NCBI GenBank assembly: GCA_963726455.1 | Contig: CAVSCK010000005.1 | Location: forward strand, 448,001-512,000 | Reading direction: 5' to 3' | Length of the DNA stretch: 64,000 nt | From: an uncultured bacterium | Lineage (GTDB): Bacteria; Zixibacteria; MSB-5A5; CAIYYT01 | Part shown: one piece after another, positions 12,926-23,297 of the stretch | Numbering within the stretch: position 1 is the stretch's first letter | Layout: each line of letters begins with the position of its first letter | The notes under the pieces: generated by a model | The model's input: only the letters and a program-made list of their open reading frames with translations | What the model was told of the DNA's origin: nothing | Databases searched by the model: none | Program-made: the position numbers and the translations under genes

Positions 12926-14809
<1,884 letters not shown>

Positions 14810-14875: not shown

Positions 14876-14920
14876 TTGACAGATATCCGGCAAATGCTAT
14901 ATTTCGTCAAGTAACGAAAT
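14876..14920 (+). promoter_or_regulatory. Sigma70-type promoter with ArsR-like operator
   Basis: TTGACA(14876)-16 bp-TATATT(14898), overlapped by palindrome ATTTCGT-N6-ACGAAAT (14901-14920). Confidence 0.7.
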
Positions 14921-15040
14921 GAGGATCAGCCGCGTCTGGCAATGACAAAGTGGCATTTACAGGCGGCAGGTTCGCGGTGAAAGAGCATATTACTTTAGAA
15001 TGACTGTTTCAACTACAAACCCCACCGACGAGGAGTGACT

Positions 15041-15793
15041 ATGTCTGTCGTCAAGATCATGGCAATGTTTATGCTTTTGGTTTTCAGTGCGAGTCAGGCG
15101 ATTGCCGCGACTACTGATGAAATCGCCAAAGCTTCAGAAAAGAAGAAAACTGTATTCTTGCTCGTAACTGATCCGGGCTCACAGGGTATCGAACAAGCCA
15201 GAGAGTTGATTAAATCCGCCTGCAAGCAAGTCAAGAATTCGACGATGATTGAATTCGACCGCTCGAACCAGGCAAACGCGGCTCTCGTAGGACAATATCG
15301 TCTCGCCGGTGCGCCGCTGCCTTTGATCCTGCTGCTGGCGCGCAATGGCGCCGTGGCCGGTGGTGTTCCAGCCGGACAAGCCACTGCGGAACAGTTGGCC
15401 AAGATGGTTCCCACCGACAGTAAAGCTGAAGTCCTCAAAGCCGTCCAGTCCGGGCAGTCGGTATTGGTGACCGCCACCAGCAAACGCATGCCCAAAGAAA
15501 GCAAAGCTTCCAGCGCCTGTGCCGCCGCCTGCAGCCAAATGCAGGGCAAGTGCTCCTCGGTTAGTCTTGATCTTGATGACGAAGACGAACTGCCGTTCCT
15601 GACCGAGTTGAAAATCAACCCACAGGCAACGGAACCGGTAACCGTCGTAATCAACGCCCAGGGCCAGGTGACCGGATCATTTCTGGGCGCCGTCCAGGTC
15701 GGTAGTCTGGTACAGGCCGCGACCAAGAAGATTGGCGGCTGTTGCCCCGGCGGCAGCAGTAGCAGCAGCGGCTGTGCTCCGGCCAAGAAGTAG
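15041..15793 (+). CDS. Exported protein with two tandem thioredoxin-like folds and a Cys-rich tail
   Basis: Signal peptide; internal duplication (KA..K.TVFLLV / KA..GQSVLVT; P.ILLL..NG.V / P.TVVIN.QG.V); CAAAC and GGCCPGG..GC. Confidence 0.7.
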   Translation: MSVVKIMAMFMLLVFSASQAIAATTDEIAKASEKKKTVFLLVTDPGSQGIEQARELIKSACKQVKNSTMIEFDRSNQANAALVGQYRLAGAPLPLILLLARNGAVAGGVPAGQATAEQLAKMVPTDSKAEVLKAVQSGQSVLVTATSKRMPKESKASSACAAACSQMQGKCSSVSLDLDDEDELPFLTELKINPQATEPVTVVINAQGQVTGSFLGAVQVGSLVQAATKKIGGCCPGGSSSSSGCAPAKK

Positions 15794-15803
15794 CGTGCGA
15801 TAA

Positions 15804-17033
15804 TTGAATACGAAATTCAGTTTCACTACCCTGATCTGGCGTGAACTCTGGCAACGCAAGTCGCGCCTCATTTCGGGATTGCTCACTATCACGCTCGGCA
15901 TCGCGGTCATTGTTGGCATCGAATCCGTAACCAGTGTATCCCGCGAGGTTGTTGCGAAGAAGCTCGATCTGCTGGGCGCCAACATCCTCGTATTGCCCCA
16001 GGCAGCGTCCGTCGACGACTATTATTCAGCAGACATCGACGCTCCGACTTTCCCCGAAGAATATGTCGAGCGCATTGCGACCTCGATGCTTCCCGGTGTT
16101 GACAATCTTTCGCCCAAGCTCAGTCGCCGCATCAAAGTCTCCGGCTATCCTGTCGTACTGACCGGCATACTTCCTCAAAGCGAGTTGGCCTCGAAGCCGA
16201 TTTGGCAGTCATCGGGGTTGATGGCTGCCGAGCTGCAGGTGGCCTGCGCCACCTCGAGCAATCCTGCCGACACGACACGGCTTGACCCGAGTCTCAAACG
16301 GGCAACTGTCGATTCTCTATCTGCATCGGAAGTCTGGATCGGCAGCACGGTCGCCGAACGGCTTAAGCTCTCGACCGGCTCCAGCGTGCAATTGGAGGGA
16401 AAGCCGTTCACAGTGGTACATGTGCTGCCGGAGAACGGTACCGTCGATGATAACCGCATCTTCGCGCACCTCCACAGCGTGCAACAACTATTGGGAACAG
16501 GCGAACAAACCAGCGCCATCGAGATCATGGGGTGCTGCAGCGCCATTTCCGATGGGCTGCTCGGCAAGCTGAGAAACATTCTGCCGGACACGAAAATCAC
16601 GACCATCAACAATATCGTTAACACCCAGATCGAGACCAACAAGCTCATGCTCAAAGTCTCGCTGATTCTGCTGGTGATCATCGTCATTGTCGGCGGAATC
16701 GCAATCGGCAATTACATGTGGGCGAACGTCGAGGAAAGGCGCAAGGAAATCGGCACTTTGATAACAATCGGATTCACGCGCGCGCGAATCTATCGACTGT
16801 TTCTTGCCAAGTCCCTGATCCTTGGATTCGTCGGCGGAGTTCTTGGTTTTGCGCTCGGCACGCTGGCCGCCGTGATATTAGGCCCGCAACTGGCCGGCCT
16901 GCAAATCCGTCCTGTACCGATCTACTTGTTCTGGTCACTGATTGTGGCCATAGCTATCGCGATCGCAGGCAGTTGGTATCCGGTCTATCGCGCCGCACGG
17001 CTTGACCCGGCGCTGATCATGCAGGAAATCTGA
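15804..17033 (+). CDS. MacB/FtsX-like ABC transporter permease
   Basis: One N-terminal TM, large periplasmic domain, ERRKEIG motif, three C-terminal TMs, PVYRAARLDP. Confidence 0.9.
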   Translation: MNTKFSFTTLIWRELWQRKSRLISGLLTITLGIAVIVGIESVTSVSREVVAKKLDLLGANILVLPQAASVDDYYSADIDAPTFPEEYVERIATSMLPGVDNLSPKLSRRIKVSGYPVVLTGILPQSELASKPIWQSSGLMAAELQVACATSSNPADTTRLDPSLKRATVDSLSASEVWIGSTVAERLKLSTGSSVQLEGKPFTVVHVLPENGTVDDNRIFAHLHSVQQLLGTGEQTSAIEIMGCCSAISDGLLGKLRNILPDTKITTINNIVNTQIETNKLMLKVSLILLVIIVIVGGIAIGNYMWANVEERRKEIGTLITIGFTRARIYRLFLAKSLILGFVGGVLGFALGTLAAVILGPQLAGLQIRPVPIYLFWSLIVAIAIAIAGSWYPVYRAARLDPALIMQEI

Positions 17034-17035
17034 CC

Positions 17036-17701
17036 ATGTATAAACTCGACAAGCTCACCAAGATCTATGCGCGCCGCGACGCCGAAGTCTGTGCTCTCGA
17101 CGGGGTCACTCTTCAAATCCAGCCGGGCAGTTTCGTGGTCGTGACCGGTGGTTCGGGCTCGGGGAAAACGACATTGCTGCTCACATTGGGTGGCATCATT
17201 CATCCCACCTCCGGATCGCTTCTGATCAAAGGCCAAGACTTGTACGGCTACTCCGCGAATGAATTGGCGGACTACCGGAACCGCACCATCGGATTTGTCC
17301 TGCAAACATTCAATCTCGTTCCCTATTTGACGGTGCTCGAAAACGTGATGGTGCCCATGCTGTTGAGCACTCGTAATGGAGACGGACGTGAATCGCGGGC
17401 TGCCAAATTGCTGGCACAGGTCGGTCTTGACAATCGACAGCAATTTCTGCCGCGCGAATTGTCGGTCGGACAGCAGCAGCGCGTGGCAATCGCCCGGGCA
17501 CTGGCGAACGACCCCGAGGTCATCCTCGCTGACGAGCCGACCGGCAATCTTGATCCCACTCTGTCTGGCGAAATTCTGACCATTCTGAAGGATTTAAATC
17601 TGCGGGAAAAACGTACGATCATCATGGTGACACATAGCCCTCAGGCCGCAGAGTTTGGTACCGCGCGCTTCCACCTTGACAATGGGAAGTTGGCCGCGTG
17701 A
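17036..17701 (+). CDS. ABC transporter ATP-binding protein (LolD/MacB type)
   Basis: GGSGSGKTT, LSVGQQQRV, ILADEPTGNLD. Confidence 0.95.
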   Translation: MYKLDKLTKIYARRDAEVCALDGVTLQIQPGSFVVVTGGSGSGKTTLLLTLGGIIHPTSGSLLIKGQDLYGYSANELADYRNRTIGFVLQTFNLVPYLTVLENVMVPMLLSTRNGDGRESRAAKLLAQVGLDNRQQFLPRELSVGQQQRVAIARALANDPEVILADEPTGNLDPTLSGEILTILKDLNLREKRTIIMVTHSPQAAEFGTARFHLDNGKLAA

Positions 17702-18108
17702 AATCTGCGTACGTATCTCCCGGTATTGCGACTGAATCGAAGCGTACTGGTAATCGCCTGCGTCACGTTCTGGAAGTCCACAAAGCCCTATCCGACTCTA
17801 ATCGCCTGCGAGCGTTGCTGGCCTTGAAAGGGCGCGAACTCTGCGTCTGTCAGATCACCGAATTGCTGCAGCTCGCTCCCTCGACCGTGTCCAAACACCT
17901 TTCCATTCTCAAACAGGCGCGGCTGGTCGAAATGCGAAAGGTTGGCCGCTGGATCTACTATCGCCTGACTGAACCCGACTCTGCTTCCGCCGAATTAATC
18001 CGCTTTCTGGAAACGTCTCTTGCCGACGATCGACAAATCAGGGATGATCGCAAACGTTTGAAGGATATTCTCAAGATCGACCCGGACACTCTATGCCGTC
18101 GGATGTGA
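17698..18108 (+). CDS. arsR: ArsR/SmtB family metalloregulator
   Basis: KALSDSNRL..ELCVCQI..STVSKHLSIL..GRWIYY. Confidence 0.9.
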   Translation: MKSAYVSPGIATESKRTGNRLRHVLEVHKALSDSNRLRALLALKGRELCVCQITELLQLAPSTVSKHLSILKQARLVEMRKVGRWIYYRLTEPDSASAELIRFLETSLADDRQIRDDRKRLKDILKIDPDTLCRRM

Positions 18109-18548
18109 ATAAGAAGCGCATTCTATTTCTATGTACTGGCAACTCCTGCCGCAGCCAGATGGCAGAGGGCTGGTTGCGCCATTTGTACGGCGATCAATTC
18201 GAAGCATTTTCCGCCGGTGTGGATATCAAACCGGTTGACCCACTCGCTGTCAAAGCCATGGCTGAGGCCGGCGTGGACATATCAAAGCAACAAGCCAAAC
18301 ACGTTCGCGATCTGCTGAAAATTCCCTTCGACCTGGTTGTCACCGTCTGTGATCAAGCGCGCGAGCAATGCCCAACTTTTCCCGGTAACATTAGAATGAT
18401 TCACATGAGTTTCGACGATCCGCCGTTCCTGGCGCGTGACACAAGATCGGAACCGGAAGCACTCAGCCACTATCGCCGCGTGAGGGACGAGATCAGAATG
18501 TTTGTTATCGAACTGCCAGGATTAGTGAACGAAGGAGTGAATTCGTGA
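18105..18548 (+). CDS. arsC: Arsenate reductase, thioredoxin-coupled LMW-PTP type
   Basis: [32 protein letters not shown]. Confidence 0.93.
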
Positions 18549-19609
18549 CTAAGGGCGCAGGTATATCTCAAAGACTCTCCTTTCTCGATCGTTTCCTGAC
18601 CTTGTGGATCTTTCTCGGGATGGGTGTCGGAGTCGGTATCGGCTATGTTTTCCCCGCAGTCGAATCGGTGATCAATCGCTTTCAGATAGGCACCACCAAC
18701 ATTCTCATCGCCATCGGACTGATTCTCATGATGTACCCGCCTTTGGCTAAGGTCCGCTACGAGGAGATGGGCGACGTCTTTCGCAATTGGCGCGTCCTGG
18801 CGATATCGCTGCTGCAAAACTGGGTCATCGGACCGATCCTGATGTTCGTGCTGGCCATAACATTTCTGAGCGGCTATCCCGATTACATGGTCGGATTGAT
18901 CATGATCGGCCTTGCGCGCTGCATCGCCATGGTGATAGTCTGGAATGATCTCGCCGGTGGCGACAAAGAATACGCTGCCGGATTGGTTGCGTTCAACAGT
19001 GTGTTTCAGGTGCTCTTCTACAGTTTATACGCATACATCTTCATCACGGTATTGCCCCCGCTGCTTGGACTAAAGGGAAGTATCGTCCAAGTCAGTATGT
19101 CCCAGATCGCCAAGAGCGTCTTCGTCTACCTCGGCATTCCCTTCATTGCCGGCATCATAACGAGATTCGCTTTGATCAAGGCCAAAGGCAAGGACTGGTA
19201 TCACAAGTCGTTCATTCCACTTATCAGCCCGATTACTCTGATCTCCCTGCTATTTACGATTCTGGTCATGTTCAGTCTCAAGGGGAACATGATCGTGCAG
19301 ATACCGTTGGATGTGCTGCGAATCGCCATTCCACTGTTGATCTACTTCGTCGTCATGTTCCTGGTGAGTTTCTGGCTAAGTTACAAAATCGGCGCCGACT
19401 ATCCGCGTGCCGCCACTTTGTCGTTTACAGCCGCAAGCAACAATTTCGAGTTGGCAATTGCCGTTGCCGTCGCGGTATTCGGAATCAACTCAGGCGCGGC
19501 GTTTGCGGCGGTTATCGGACCCCTGGTCGAAGTGCCGGTATTGATCAGTCTGGTAAACGTGTCGCTCTATTTCCGCAAACGTTATTTCGTGCCACAGGCA
19601 GCCAGGTAG
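18545..19609 (+). CDS. acr3: ACR3 family arsenite efflux transporter
   Basis: [39 protein letters not shown]. Confidence 0.96.
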
Positions 19610-19631
19610 CATCAGAGAAAGGCGCCGCCAA

Positions 19632-20378
19632 TTGAAGTTCGGGACAATCGTAATTGCGACACTGATTGCGCTCAGCGTGCTTTTCGCGACACGATCGACC
19701 GCCGCGGGTCCGCTACTCAAACTGCCTGAAGCTGAATTTGACTTCGGTTATGTGCCGCAGGGGTCCAAGGTGACTCATGTGTTCTGGTTGTACTCGGTCG
19801 GTACCGACACTCTAAAGATTATTCGCGTCAATCCCGGCTGAGGGTGTACTCAGGCGCCGCTTGAAAAGCAGGTGCTTGCTGTCGGTGACAGCACTAAACT
19901 CGAAATCATTTTCAGCGCCGGCAACAAACCGGGAATCGTCACCAAAGGGCCGGTCATTACGACCAACGAAGGACTGCCCGACAAGCGCGTAGTCATCAAG
20001 ACCAATATCGAAGCCAACCCTGACTCGACCTTTCCCATCGTAATCACGCCGCCGAAGCTGGAATTCAAGCAGATGGGGGACTCAATGCCTGAAGAATTGG
20101 ATTTTACCCTGAGCAATAAGTCTCGAAACACGGTGACGCCGAAACTAGTTAGTTCGTCTTTGCCGACGGCAACCGTGATTCTGCCCGGTGCGATACCTCC
20201 GGGCAAATCGGCGACGGGCACGATCAGAATCCCGAAAGCCGGGCCCCGGGCCGGTCAGGAAAAATCGATTACGATAGTACTCGACGACTCCGACAAAACC
20301 CGCTTTACGATTCCTGTGAAAATCACTTTTGCCGGGAAGATTATACCTCCCGGAAAACGGTTTGGTGAGGGTTACTGA
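19632..20378 (+). CDS. DUF1573 (Ig-like) exported protein, candidate selenoprotein with in-frame TGA at 19839-19841
   Basis: ORFs 19632-19841 and 19872-20378 are in the same frame. Read-through gives FDFG...TLKIIRVNPG-U-GCT...LAVGDSTKLEI, matching the DUF1573 CGCT motif; a hairpin follows at 19851-19878. Confidence 0.8.
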
Positions 20379-20434
20379 CGGCTGATCTGGCAAGCGTCGG
20401 TCCAAATTGCGGTTACAGATTCTAAATCTTCCAT

Positions 20435-20471
20435 TTGACTTGTTCGACTATTTGCCTATATTGCCAAATAG
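20435..20471 (+). promoter_or_regulatory. Promoter with ArsR-like operator for the second ars unit
   Basis: TTGACT(20435)-16 bp-TATATT(20457); palindrome CTATTTG-N10-CAAATAG (20448-20471). Confidence 0.65.
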
Positions 20472-20496
20472 GAATACAACCCCGAGGGTAATTTTA

Positions 20497-20817
20497 ATGG
20501 ATGCAAAGACCAAAGCCCGTTTCGAATCCAAAGCCAGAATCATCAAAGCGATGGCTCACCCGACCCGGCTGTTCATCGTTGACGAGCTGTCCAAGAAGAG
20601 CCGCTGTGTTTGTGAGTTGACGGAAATGATCGGCGCCGATACTTCCACTACGTCCAAACACTTGTCCATTCTAAGAGCCGCGGGTATTGTCCAGGACGAA
20701 AAACGCGGCTTGCAGGTTTGGTATACTCTCAAGGTGCCCTGCATCCTGAAGTTCTTCGGCTGCGTGGAACAGGTGCAGAAATTGTCCGCGAAAGAACAAT
20801 TGGCCGCACTCGATTAA
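20497..20817 (+). CDS. arsR: ArsR/SmtB family metalloregulator (second copy)
   Basis: KAMAHPTRL, RCVCEL, SKHLSIL, VPC..FFGCV. Confidence 0.9.
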   Translation: MDAKTKARFESKARIIKAMAHPTRLFIVDELSKKSRCVCELTEMIGADTSTTSKHLSILRAAGIVQDEKRGLQVWYTLKVPCILKFFGCVEQVQKLSAKEQLAALD

Positions 20818-20871
20818 TGGTGATGCTTTGAGATATCTGAGTGAATGTTCGGCCGCACGGGGACACGCCTA

Positions 20872-21819
20872 ATGTTGCAGCAATTTGCTGACTATCTCGT
20901 ATTCACGCTGCTTGGACTTGATCCCAGTACACGGGTGGCTCTTGCGCTCGACTTCTTCATCTACGACACCATCAAGATATTCCTGTTACTGGCAACCATC
21001 ATCTTCTGCGTGGCCGTTATCCGATCCTATTTCTCGCCCGAAAAGACACGGCGCTTCCTGTCGCACGGCAGAGAGTACCTGGGAAACATACTGGCTGCAC
21101 TCCTTGGCATTGTGACTCCGTTCTGCTCTTGTTCGGCCGTGCCACTTTTCATCGGCTTTGTCGAATCAGGAATCCCGCTTGGAGTGACTTTCTCGTTTCT
21201 CGTGTCGTCACCGATGGTCAATGAAGTGGCGTTGATAATGCTGTGGGGACTATTCGGCTGGAAGATAGCCCTGATCTACATCGGTACGGGCGTCGCCGTC
21301 GCCATTGTCTCAGGCATCGTGATCGGCCGACTGCGGATGGAACGCTTTGTTCAGGACTACGTCTACTCGCTGAAGATCGGTGAGAGCGCAATCGCGGAGC
21401 AAACCTTCCGCGACAGATTGGTGTATGCCCGCAGCTACACCGCCACATTGCTCAAGAAGATTTGGCCCTATATCTTAATCGGCGTCGGCATCGGCGGGTT
21501 CATCCACGGATATGTGCCTGACGGATTTCTTCTGAAATACGCCGGTCCCGAAAATCCTTTTGCTGTTCCGATAGCCGTGGCAATAGGAGTGCCGTTGTAC
21601 AGCAACGCTGCAGGTGTCATACCTATCGTGCAAGCGCTGATGGGCAAAGGAATGGCTGCCGGAACCGTGCTGGCCTTCATGATGGCGGTGACGGCCCTAT
21701 CACTGCCGGAGGCAATAATACTGAAAAATGTGCTCAAGATGCGGTTACTCATAACCTTCTTCGGCATTGTCGCCGTCGCCATTACCTTGACAGGATACTT
21801 GTTCAACGCCATCCTATGA
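20872..21819 (+). CDS. arsP: ArsP-family (DUF318) permease
   Basis: TPFCSCSAVP, SSPMVNE, GVPLYSN, LSLPE. Confidence 0.85.
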   Translation: MLQQFADYLVFTLLGLDPSTRVALALDFFIYDTIKIFLLLATIIFCVAVIRSYFSPEKTRRFLSHGREYLGNILAALLGIVTPFCSCSAVPLFIGFVESGIPLGVTFSFLVSSPMVNEVALIMLWGLFGWKIALIYIGTGVAVAIVSGIVIGRLRMERFVQDYVYSLKIGESAIAEQTFRDRLVYARSYTATLLKKIWPYILIGVGIGGFIHGYVPDGFLLKYAGPENPFAVPIAVAIGVPLYSNAAGVIPIVQALMGKGMAAGTVLAFMMAVTALSLPEAIILKNVLKMRLLITFFGIVAVAITLTGYLFNAIL

Positions 21820-21847
21820 TATCAGGATTGACGAAGAGGAGAACGAT

Positions 21848-22081
21848 ATGAAGATTGAAGTGCTGGGAACCGGCTGTTCGCGCTGCAAAAAACTGCACGA
21901 AAACGCCATGCAGGCGGTGATCGCCGCCGACATTGACGCCGACGTCGTCAAGGTTGAGGATATGAAAGAAATCCTGCGCTACGGCGTCATGGCGACACCG
22001 GCTCTGGTAATTGATGGTGTCGTCAAAAGCACAGGAGCCGTCCCTTCGCCCGCAGAGATTCGCAAGCTGCTGGGCAAGTAG
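21848..22081 (+). CDS. Small thioredoxin-family redox-active disulfide protein
   Basis: MKIEVLGTGCSRC...YGVMATPALVIDG. Confidence 0.9.
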   Translation: MKIEVLGTGCSRCKKLHENAMQAVIAADIDADVVKVEDMKEILRYGVMATPALVIDGVVKSTGAVPSPAEIRKLLGK

Positions 22082-22149
22082 GTGAATGCTATAGTTTCCT
22101 GAGGTCGAAACGAATTGAAATCTGATAACGTTGTGAATTGCAGGTAATC

Positions 22150-22611
22150 ATGAACCCTAAGAAATTAGCCACAATCTTGCTCGGCATCTTTGTGCTGGCT
22201 AGCTTCGTCGGCCTCACGCTCAAGGAATTCTCGGGCGAGAAGGCCGCGTCGCAAACCACTCAGATCAAGGGCACCAAGGTAGTCGCATACTATTTCCACG
22301 GCGCCAAACGCTGCCCAACTTGTATGAAGATCGAGCGCTTTTCCCGCACCGCCGTTGATTCGTTCTTCACTCCGGCGATCAAATCGGGCGATCTCGAATT
22401 TATCACGCTGAATTACGACGAGCCGCAGTACGAGCACTACTGGACCGACTTCAAACTCACGGCGCAGTCGCTTGTGCTCGTCCGCTTTACCGACGGCAAA
22501 CAAGAGAGTTGGGAAAACCTGACACAGATCTGGGATTTGGTCGGTGACGAAGCGCAGTTCTATTCTTACGTCCAGGAGGGTATCGGACGCTTTCTGAAAG
22601 AACTGCCTTGA
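22150..22611 (+). CDS. ArsF-family thioredoxin-like protein
   Basis: N-terminal anchor; VVAYYFHGAKRCPTC; positioned upstream of the ArsG-like gene. Confidence 0.75.
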   Translation: MNPKKLATILLGIFVLASFVGLTLKEFSGEKAASQTTQIKGTKVVAYYFHGAKRCPTCMKIERFSRTAVDSFFTPAIKSGDLEFITLNYDEPQYEHYWTDFKLTAQSLVLVRFTDGKQESWENLTQIWDLVGDEAQFYSYVQEGIGRFLKELP

Positions 22612-23297
22612 ACGATCTGATTCTGTCAATCGGCACGTCGCTCTGGCTCGGTATTCTCACATCGATCAGTCCCTGTCCTCTGGCGACCAACATTGCCGCG
22701 ATCTCATTCGTCACCCGACGCGTCGGTCAGTCACGCCAGGTTCTGATTTCAGGATTGCTGTACACCGCAGGCCGGGTGATCGCATACGGCGCTCTGGGTG
22801 TCATCATTACTGCCGGCATACTTTCGATGTCCGACATTTCCCTCACGCTGCAGCGTTACATGAATCGGCTGCTCGGGCCGCTGCTAATATTGGTTGGGAT
22901 GTTCCTGCTGGAATTGCTCAGTTTCGGCGGCAAGGGTGCCAGCGTCTCCGACAAGATGCAGCGCCGAGTGGAGCGGATGGGCATGTGGGGCGCTTTGCCG
23001 CTCGGCTTTGTTTTTGCTCTCACCTTCTGTCCCGTATCAGCGGCACTCTTCTTCGGCAGCTTGATTCCGCTCTCGGTTGAATCCAATTCTGTGCTGATGC
23101 TGCCATCACTGTTCGGCATCGGCACCGCCTTGCCGGTGATCACTTTTGCCGTGGCGCTGGCTATCAGCGTAAATACCGCCGCGAAATTGTTCGAGCATAC
23201 CAGGAAAGTTGAGTGGTGGGCCCGCCGCGTGACCGGAATCGTCTTGATCCTGGTGGGTATCTACCTCTGCCTGCGCTACATCTTCGATATCCTTTAG
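22608..23297 (+). CDS. ArsG-family (CcdA/DsbD-like) membrane protein
   Basis: GILTSISPCPLATNIAA and FALTFCPVSAALFFG; about six TMs. Confidence 0.8.
   Translation: MNDLILSIGTSLWLGILTSISPCPLATNIAAISFVTRRVGQSRQVLISGLLYTAGRVIAYGALGVIITAGILSMSDISLTLQRYMNRLLGPLLILVGMFLLELLSFGGKGASVSDKMQRRVERMGMWGALPLGFVFALTFCPVSAALFFGSLIPLSVESNSVLMLPSLFGIGTALPVITFAVALAISVNTAAKLFEHTRKVEWWARRVTGIVLILVGIYLCLRYIFDIL

Follow-up and report, generated by a model that had tools for sequence, protein, structure and literature searches.

A DUF1573 gene with an in-frame UGA, very likely read as selenocysteine, in an arsenic island of a Zixibacteria genome

The window, meaning the whole stretch of 64,000 nucleotides analysed here, contains an arsenic (ars) island in which every gene, from 15035 to 23297, is on the + strand. 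The genes and other features are listed in Table 1. The product of the first gene, CT, matched no Pfam or NCBIfam family. In the CT model (pLDDT 82.8) there are two thioredoxin-like domains, whose PDI/PDO-like matches have low TM-scores, and the CT family shares an invariant Cys162 within CAAAC and a conserved C-terminal GCCP...C tail. Its atlas neighbours are clusters that either lack a name or carry no more than 'thioredoxin domain' as one. For the permease and ATPase genes that follow, the models matched are FtsX, MacB_PCD and LolD, with scores under the family cut-offs. However, unlike the MacB/LolCDE-type (FtsX-family) ABC transporters whose models they match, they have no membrane-fusion or outer-membrane partner in the island module and are paired with CT and a candidate selenoprotein. 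Upstream of the island, purA (13533-14809) is broken into three frames, with two apparent frameshifts in the interval from about 14300 to 14440 that may be assembly indel errors or indicate a broken gene.

The candidate selenoprotein gene is a DUF1573 gene. The acr3 gene ends at 19609, 22 nt upstream of it and on the same strand, and no terminator-like site was found between the two. The two best promoter-like sites on the + strand are in the intergenic gaps that precede CT and the second arsR gene, though such sites are overall no more numerous than in shuffled sequence. Because the best sites are in these positions, the first operon appears to end with the DUF1573 gene. The strong site ahead of the second arsR, in a gap of 118 nt, is likely to be an ArsR-controlled promoter.

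Table 1. Features of the ars island and of the DUF1573 gene (window coordinates)
Feature	Position	Strand	Remarks
Promoter-like site	14876-14903	+	11/12; ahead of first operon
CT, exported 252-aa protein	15035-15793	+	Tandem thioredoxin-like folds, CAAAC motif, GCCP...C tail
MacB/FtsX-type ABC permease	15804-17033	+	
ABC ATPase (LolD/MacB-like)	17036-17701	+	Stop overlaps arsR start
ArsR/SmtB regulator 1	17698-18108	+	
ArsC, arsenate reductase	18093-18548	+	Thioredoxin-type (LMWP)
Acr3 arsenite efflux pump	18545-19609	+	TIGR00832, 454.8 bits
Shine-Dalgarno-like GAGAAAGG	19615-19622	+	9 nt ahead of TTG start; direct sequence reading
DUF1573 selenoprotein gene (candidate)	19632-20378	+	TTG start, 248 aa, stop TGA 20376-20378
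In-frame UGA, read as selenocysteine (U70; very likely)	19839-19841	+	First Cys position of CGCT motif
Proximal hairpin A (predicted)	19851-19878	+	Core 19854-19875, loop GAA 19863-19865; canonical bacterial SECIS distance
Distal hairpin B (predicted)	19878-19892	+	GCUGUC-GGU-GACAGC; encodes AVGDS; abuts hairpin A
Promoter-like site	20435-20462	+	10/12; TTGACT, 16 nt, TATATT; ahead of second ars operon
ArsR regulator 2	20497-20817	+	Likely true ATG start 20497; ORF open from 20407
ArsP_1-type permease	20845-21819	+	
ArsE-like thioredoxin	21848-22081	+	
ArsF-family protein	22138-22611	+	
ArsG-family permease	22608-23297	+	

The DUF1573 gene appears as two ORFs, 19632-19841 (69 aa) and 19872-20378 (168 aa). 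As the original prediction stated, these are one frame split by a single TGA at the first Cys of a CGCT motif. Reading through the TGA gives a protein of 248 aa with the motif RVNPG-U-GCTQAPLE. The Pfam domain DUF1573 (PF07610) spans the TGA (residues 30-125, E 7.8e-22, 77.6 bits relative to a cut-off of 26.1), and the U-G-C motif lies within this domain, as PG-U-GCT. The N-terminus, MKFGTIVIATLIALSVLFATRSTAA, resembles a signal peptide on visual inspection and is helical in the AlphaFold2 model, and the protein is apparently exported.

The AlphaFold2 model, built with 41 aligned homologues, has a pLDDT of 90.8 and consists of two tandem beta-sandwich Ig-like domains, with the PG-U-GC segment forming the loop after strand 61-67. 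Foldseek matches in the PDB were ASH/HYDIN-type and PapD-like Ig domains, together with 2qsv from P. gingivalis (function unknown). The tandem Ig-like domains thus agree with the Ig fold that had been proposed for the protein. The PDB matches are generic and gave no functional lead, and a sequence search of the PDB with the DUF1573 protein found no match at E up to 1.

The DUF1573 protein family was found in 60 of 61 genomes (60 related genomes and G000), and at least 44 of the 61 have a TGA-bearing match among the matches listed. A tblastn search over 54 related loci from Zixibacteria returned 80 HSPs. There is a TGA in 47 of them, in every case at column 70, the position of the first Cys of CGCT, and 32 HSPs, representing paralogues, have Cys in this column. 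One HSP does not span column 70. Conservation of the protein persists 3' of the TGA, with 13 invariant columns in 41 sequences. The genome that includes the window also has a second Sec-type DUF1573 paralogue elsewhere, at C4:603258-603938 on the - strand, with the motif VQPG-U-GCTKAPL and a distal hairpin identical to that in the window. This paralogue is arrayed with two Cys-type paralogues, C4:600984-601649 and C4:604141-604821.

The two ORFs produced by standard gene calling would be the correct gene structure if the TGA had arisen by nonsense mutation or acted as a genuine stop, leaving a pseudogene or two small genes, and apparent frameshifts do occur elsewhere in this assembly, in purA (see above). 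However, the 47 TGA-bearing homologues that share the column come from many independent assemblies, both the conservation and the confidently modelled fold extend across the TGA, and the RNA structure downstream of it is specific to Sec forms (see below). We consider this explanation very improbable.

An error in sequencing or assembly, with TGC or TGT as the true codon, is extremely unlikely. The public reads over the site amount to a single 277-nt contig (19826-20102, 11 differences) from a 96 %-identical relative, which has no alternative letter at the TGA, although the TGA is 13 nt from the contig end, too close for this contig to be decisive. However, the same TGA and flanking hairpins recur in dozens of other genomes, and the TGA is also present in the second paralogue of this genome. 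Given the fixed TGA column, the protein conservation and the RNA evidence, both a nonsense mutation and a local sequencing error are excluded for practical purposes.

The source genome (5 contigs totalling 3.64 Mb, with a marker-gene completeness of 100 %) contains all of the genes for selenocysteine insertion that were searched for. The selA (414 bits), selB (303 bits) and selD (392 bits) genes were each identified with scores above the curated cut-off, selB adjoins selA, and a tRNA-Sec(tca) found by ARAGORN is next to them. The selD gene (C4:1791814-1792734) has its own in-frame TGA, in the context ...CAG-U-ASK..., followed by a SECIS that is a single hairpin, GGCCAAA-GUU-UUUGGCC, at +16 from the UGA. 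A second selD-like copy, at C3:645393-646257, is in two adjoining pieces in different frames.

TGA ends 8 of the 17 neighbouring genes, the DUF1573 gene itself among them. TGA is an ordinary stop in this organism, and the internal TGA therefore needs local recoding. As selenocysteine is assigned here from sequence evidence, the UGA might be read through in some other way, by near-cognate insertion of Trp or Cys or under a reassigned code. However, the use of TGA as a stop in the neighbouring genes, the presence of the full Sec machinery, the alignment of the codon with Cys, which is the usual counterpart of Sec, and the hairpin at the SECIS position, as in the genome's own selD, all argue against this, and we regard it as highly improbable. 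The internal UGA is very likely decoded as selenocysteine.

Judged from sequence, the recoding element would consist of two adjacent hairpins. In the window, the stem of hairpin A is CAGGCGCC-GCTT-GAA-AAGC-A-GGTGCTTG (19851-19878), exactly as the original prediction gave it, and the G of the loop, at 19863, is 22 nt past the A of the TGA. This hairpin is part of the minimum-free-energy fold of 19836-19900 (-27 kcal/mol, z -2.36), which was equalled by 3 of 200 shuffles. Its description as SECIS-like holds in that it is specific to Sec forms, shows compensatory changes and lies at the usual SECIS distance. However, the description is incomplete, as the element also includes hairpin B.

In the following, positions are numbered with the U of the UGA as 0. 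Hairpin A is found at about +14 to +37 in the Sec forms and its sequence is variable, with compensatory variants such as GCUCC/GGAGC, CCUCUU/AAGAGG and CCACUG/CGGUGG. The apical loop begins between +20 and +24 in 44 of 46 sequences, and a G is present at either of the first two loop positions in only 30 of the 46. The predicted stability of hairpin A is -9.3 kcal/mol in the 47 Sec forms and -2.7 kcal/mol in the 32 Cys forms (Mann-Whitney p = 1.6e-11). When hairpin A was confined to one fixed register, only 73.5 % of its cells were paired. With one fixed structure for the alignment, 82 % of cells were paired in the Sec forms, a level reached by none of 500 shuffles, whereas the figure for the Cys alignment was 47.7 %, and 391 of 500 shuffles were as high.

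Hairpin B is at +39 to +53, with its loop at +45 to +47, and is more conserved than hairpin A, its nucleotides being near-invariant in the Sec forms only. It is fully paired in 38 of the 47 Sec forms but in only one of the 32 Cys forms, and the exact stem sequence is present in 36 of the former and none of the latter. The corresponding stabilities are -8.2 and -4.0 kcal/mol (Mann-Whitney p = 1e-9). The peptides encoded over hairpin B are nevertheless alike in Sec and Cys forms (AVGDS or APGDS). The 3.64-Mb genome contains only two exact copies of the 15-mer. Both belong to DUF1573-Sec genes, namely the window gene and C4:603258-603938, and both follow the UGA at a distance of 39 nt.

A divergent subfamily with the motif KGS-U-GCTAAVL has the same two-hairpin layout, with CCGUC...GACGG as hairpin A and UUCCCC-CGGGY-GGGGAA, at +37, as hairpin B. 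As the layout is kept with other sequences, the distal helix is conserved as a structure, beyond its sequence. This is a second, longer subfamily of DUF1573-like selenoproteins, found directly after the ABC gene at loci L111, L117, L118, L120, L122-L126, L128, L129, L133, L136 and L145.

The element resembles a canonical bacterial SECIS (E. coli fdhF type) and the SECIS of the genome's own selD in having a hairpin just 3' of the UGA. However, it differs from both by the addition of an abutting second hairpin at +39, a family-specific structure with a GG(U) loop and a conserved nucleotide sequence. The loop of hairpin B is farther from the UGA than is typical of bacterial SECIS models, and the element lends itself to asking which distances from the UGA, and which shapes, a bacterial SECIS can have. 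An Rfam search of the recoding region found no SECIS or other family, the only matches being two at chance level (E 2 and 5.5).

The original prediction presented the gene as a hidden selenoprotein. It is hidden in that gene calling splits it, and the protein will therefore be lost or truncated in annotations of the whole phylum. However, the family itself is not new. The entry 'DUF1573 domain-containing protein, pfam07610, UGC' appears among the prokaryotic selenoproteins in the lists given in PMC9312934 and PMC13188914, and the listing, as far as the text of these sources goes, can be traced to OS_HP2 of Zhang & Gladyshev 2007 (PMC1976440). The NCBIfam model NF041425, 'OS_HP2 family (seleno)protein', scores the window protein at 70.3 bits, below the cut-off of 100, and from its sequence the window protein appears to be related to this curated subfamily but to fall outside it. 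The two share PF07610, a Sec-Gly-Cys at the first Cys of a conserved CGC, Cys homologues and an unknown function. However, the window protein differs from OS_HP2 in belonging to a large Zixibacteria expansion, in having a second Ig-like domain and in being embedded in ars islands. What goes beyond the existing listing is the Sec-only association with ars islands, the module of CT and a MacB-type ABC transporter, and the two-hairpin element.

In the full text of the literature mentioning DUF1573 and arsenic (supplements aside), no paper appears to link the two. The co-mentions seen there concern iron in Bacteroidetes, or consist of an arsenic passage on other selenoproteins. Judging by titles and abstracts, none of the papers listed on Zixibacteria and selenocysteine is about the DUF1573 family. 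The Sao operon, a selenoprotein-containing ABC/efflux operon, is comparable, according to the passages of PMC13188914 that describe it, in that its selenoproteins and transporters are neighbours and the setting is one of metals or metalloids. However, the ATPase in the window scores 127 bits relative to 360 for SaoA and the ArsP-type permease 125 relative to 325 for SaoE, both far below the cut-off, and no match to SaoB, SaoC, SaoX or SaoT was seen in the window.

Homologues of CT were found in 49 of 285 Zixibacteria genomes. Islands were located via CT, not via DUF1573, and 40 such loci, the window and two further loci make up the 43 islands considered here. CT is always followed by the MacB/FtsX permease and ABC ATPase genes (window and L077-L146), and this trio is beside arsR in all of the islands except one short contig, mostly together with acr3, arsC or arsEFG genes as well. 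A profile search of six-frame translations identified a U-G-C DUF1573 gene in 26 of the 43 islands, in 10 families. Where the full flanks were available (a minimum of 1.5 kb beyond the ABC gene and of 1.2 kb ahead of CT), 24 of 34 islands have such a gene and 10 have no DUF1573 gene. As related islands are not independent, these counts are given alone, without statistics.

The position of the DUF1573 gene in the islands is of three kinds: it can immediately follow the ABC gene, immediately precede CT or, as in the window, be elsewhere in the island. None of the 28 island DUF1573 genes has a Cys at the motif, and three look frameshifted. By its conserved placement in clusters with arsR, arsC and acr3, the gene is a candidate component of ars operons. 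The proposed connection of selenium with arsenic stands in this respect, in that the Sec-type gene recurs in the islands, whereas a role of the Sec-x-Cys site in arsenic or redox chemistry is putative.

In a quick IQ-TREE analysis of 83 sequences, from which three rows with extra stops had been dropped, the window gene clusters with the island copies of G127 (f7), G019 (f1) and G053 (f14) with SH-aLRT 94. The island label changes five times in this tree, relative to a mean of 14 for shuffled labels, and none of 500 shuffles was as low, though most of the non-island rows were labelled without inspection of their context. In the islands of the same genus that could be read (G001 and G003), acr3 is directly followed by the second arsR and there is no DUF1573 gene. 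The gene was therefore either gained in the source genome or lost in its relatives. The order of genes in these islands (L107, L108) is as in the window, minus the selenoprotein gene.

A real selenoprotein whose job is not specific to arsenic could account for this picture. The protein might take part in thiol/selenol redox reactions of the envelope in general, or assist MacB-type ABC transporters, and simply travel with ars islands. The Sec and Cys paralogues of DUF1573 are common outside ars islands, where they are again beside FtsX/ABC genes. In both such loci scanned, in G026 and G035, close homologues (about 50 % identical to the window protein) are arrayed with other DUF1573 genes and accompanied by GWxTD-protein and FtsX/ABC genes but no ars genes. 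The same-genus islands work without the gene, and 10 of the 34 full-flank islands lack it. However, the gene was found in 26 of the 43 islands, which had been located through another gene, in three arrangements and 10 families and always in the Sec form. The island copies also form clades of their own in the quick tree, and the window gene belongs to an ArsR-type operon in which only 22 nt separate it from acr3. We regard a role that is not specific to arsenic as a real possibility, albeit not the expected one.

Taken as a whole, the locus is, we are confident, best explained as encoding an exported Sec protein that is produced through recoding by downstream hairpins, with its gene as the final cistron in an ArsR-type operon. 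The product would be a single exported protein of 248 aa with two Ig-like (DUF1573/ASH-type) domains and a Sec-Gly-Cys site at the surface. Recoding would be directed by the mRNA just 3' of the UGA, first by the variable hairpin A and then by the near-invariant hairpin B, with Sec insertion supplied by the SelA, SelB, tRNA-Sec and SelD of the genome. The operon would run from CT through the MacB-type ABC permease, ATPase, ArsR, ArsC and Acr3 genes to the DUF1573 gene.

As(III) has affinity for closely spaced thiols and selenols, and ArsR and ArsD are Cys-based As(III) binders of ars operons. The DUF1573 protein resembles ArsR and ArsD in having closely spaced soft ligands and in being encoded within an ArsR-controlled ars operon. 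However, it is Ig-like, apparently exported rather than cytoplasmic, and has Sec as well as Cys, and any binding by it is putative. From this affinity and the gene context, it is quite possible, if short of probable, that Sec70 and Cys72 form a periplasmic selenolate/thiolate pair that binds a trivalent arsenical or other thiophilic metalloid, or cycles as a selenenylsulfide. The partners of the Sec protein would then be CT, which is Cys-rich and has tandem thioredoxin-like folds, and the island's MacB-type ABC transporter.

More speculatively, CT, the MacB-type ABC transporter and an obligate-Sec DUF1573 protein might constitute a hitherto undescribed periplasmic arsenic module that captures or reduces arsenicals outside the cytoplasm, and the SECIS might be a family-specific two-hairpin element in which the distal hairpin is required. 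Such a module, if real, would for the first time assign a function to the DUF1573 selenoproteins. These selenoproteins have been without a function since 2007, and their Sec-only presence in islands beside CT and the MacB-type ABC transporter leads to a testable hypothesis, namely selenium-dependent extracytoplasmic arsenic chemistry.

Further in-frame stops were found in relatives. Those in the ArsR and ArsP matches were all upstream of the true starts and are an artefact of over-long queries, and a TGA in the CT gene of one relative, considered as a Sec candidate, was rejected as it aligns with Met, not Cys. Outside the ars islands, at L047 and L052, arrays of DUF1573 genes that include both Sec and Cys forms adjoin pairs of genes for GWxTD-domain proteins, two FtsX/MacB permease genes and an ABC ATPase gene, and the DUF1573 family may generally partner MacB-type transporters.
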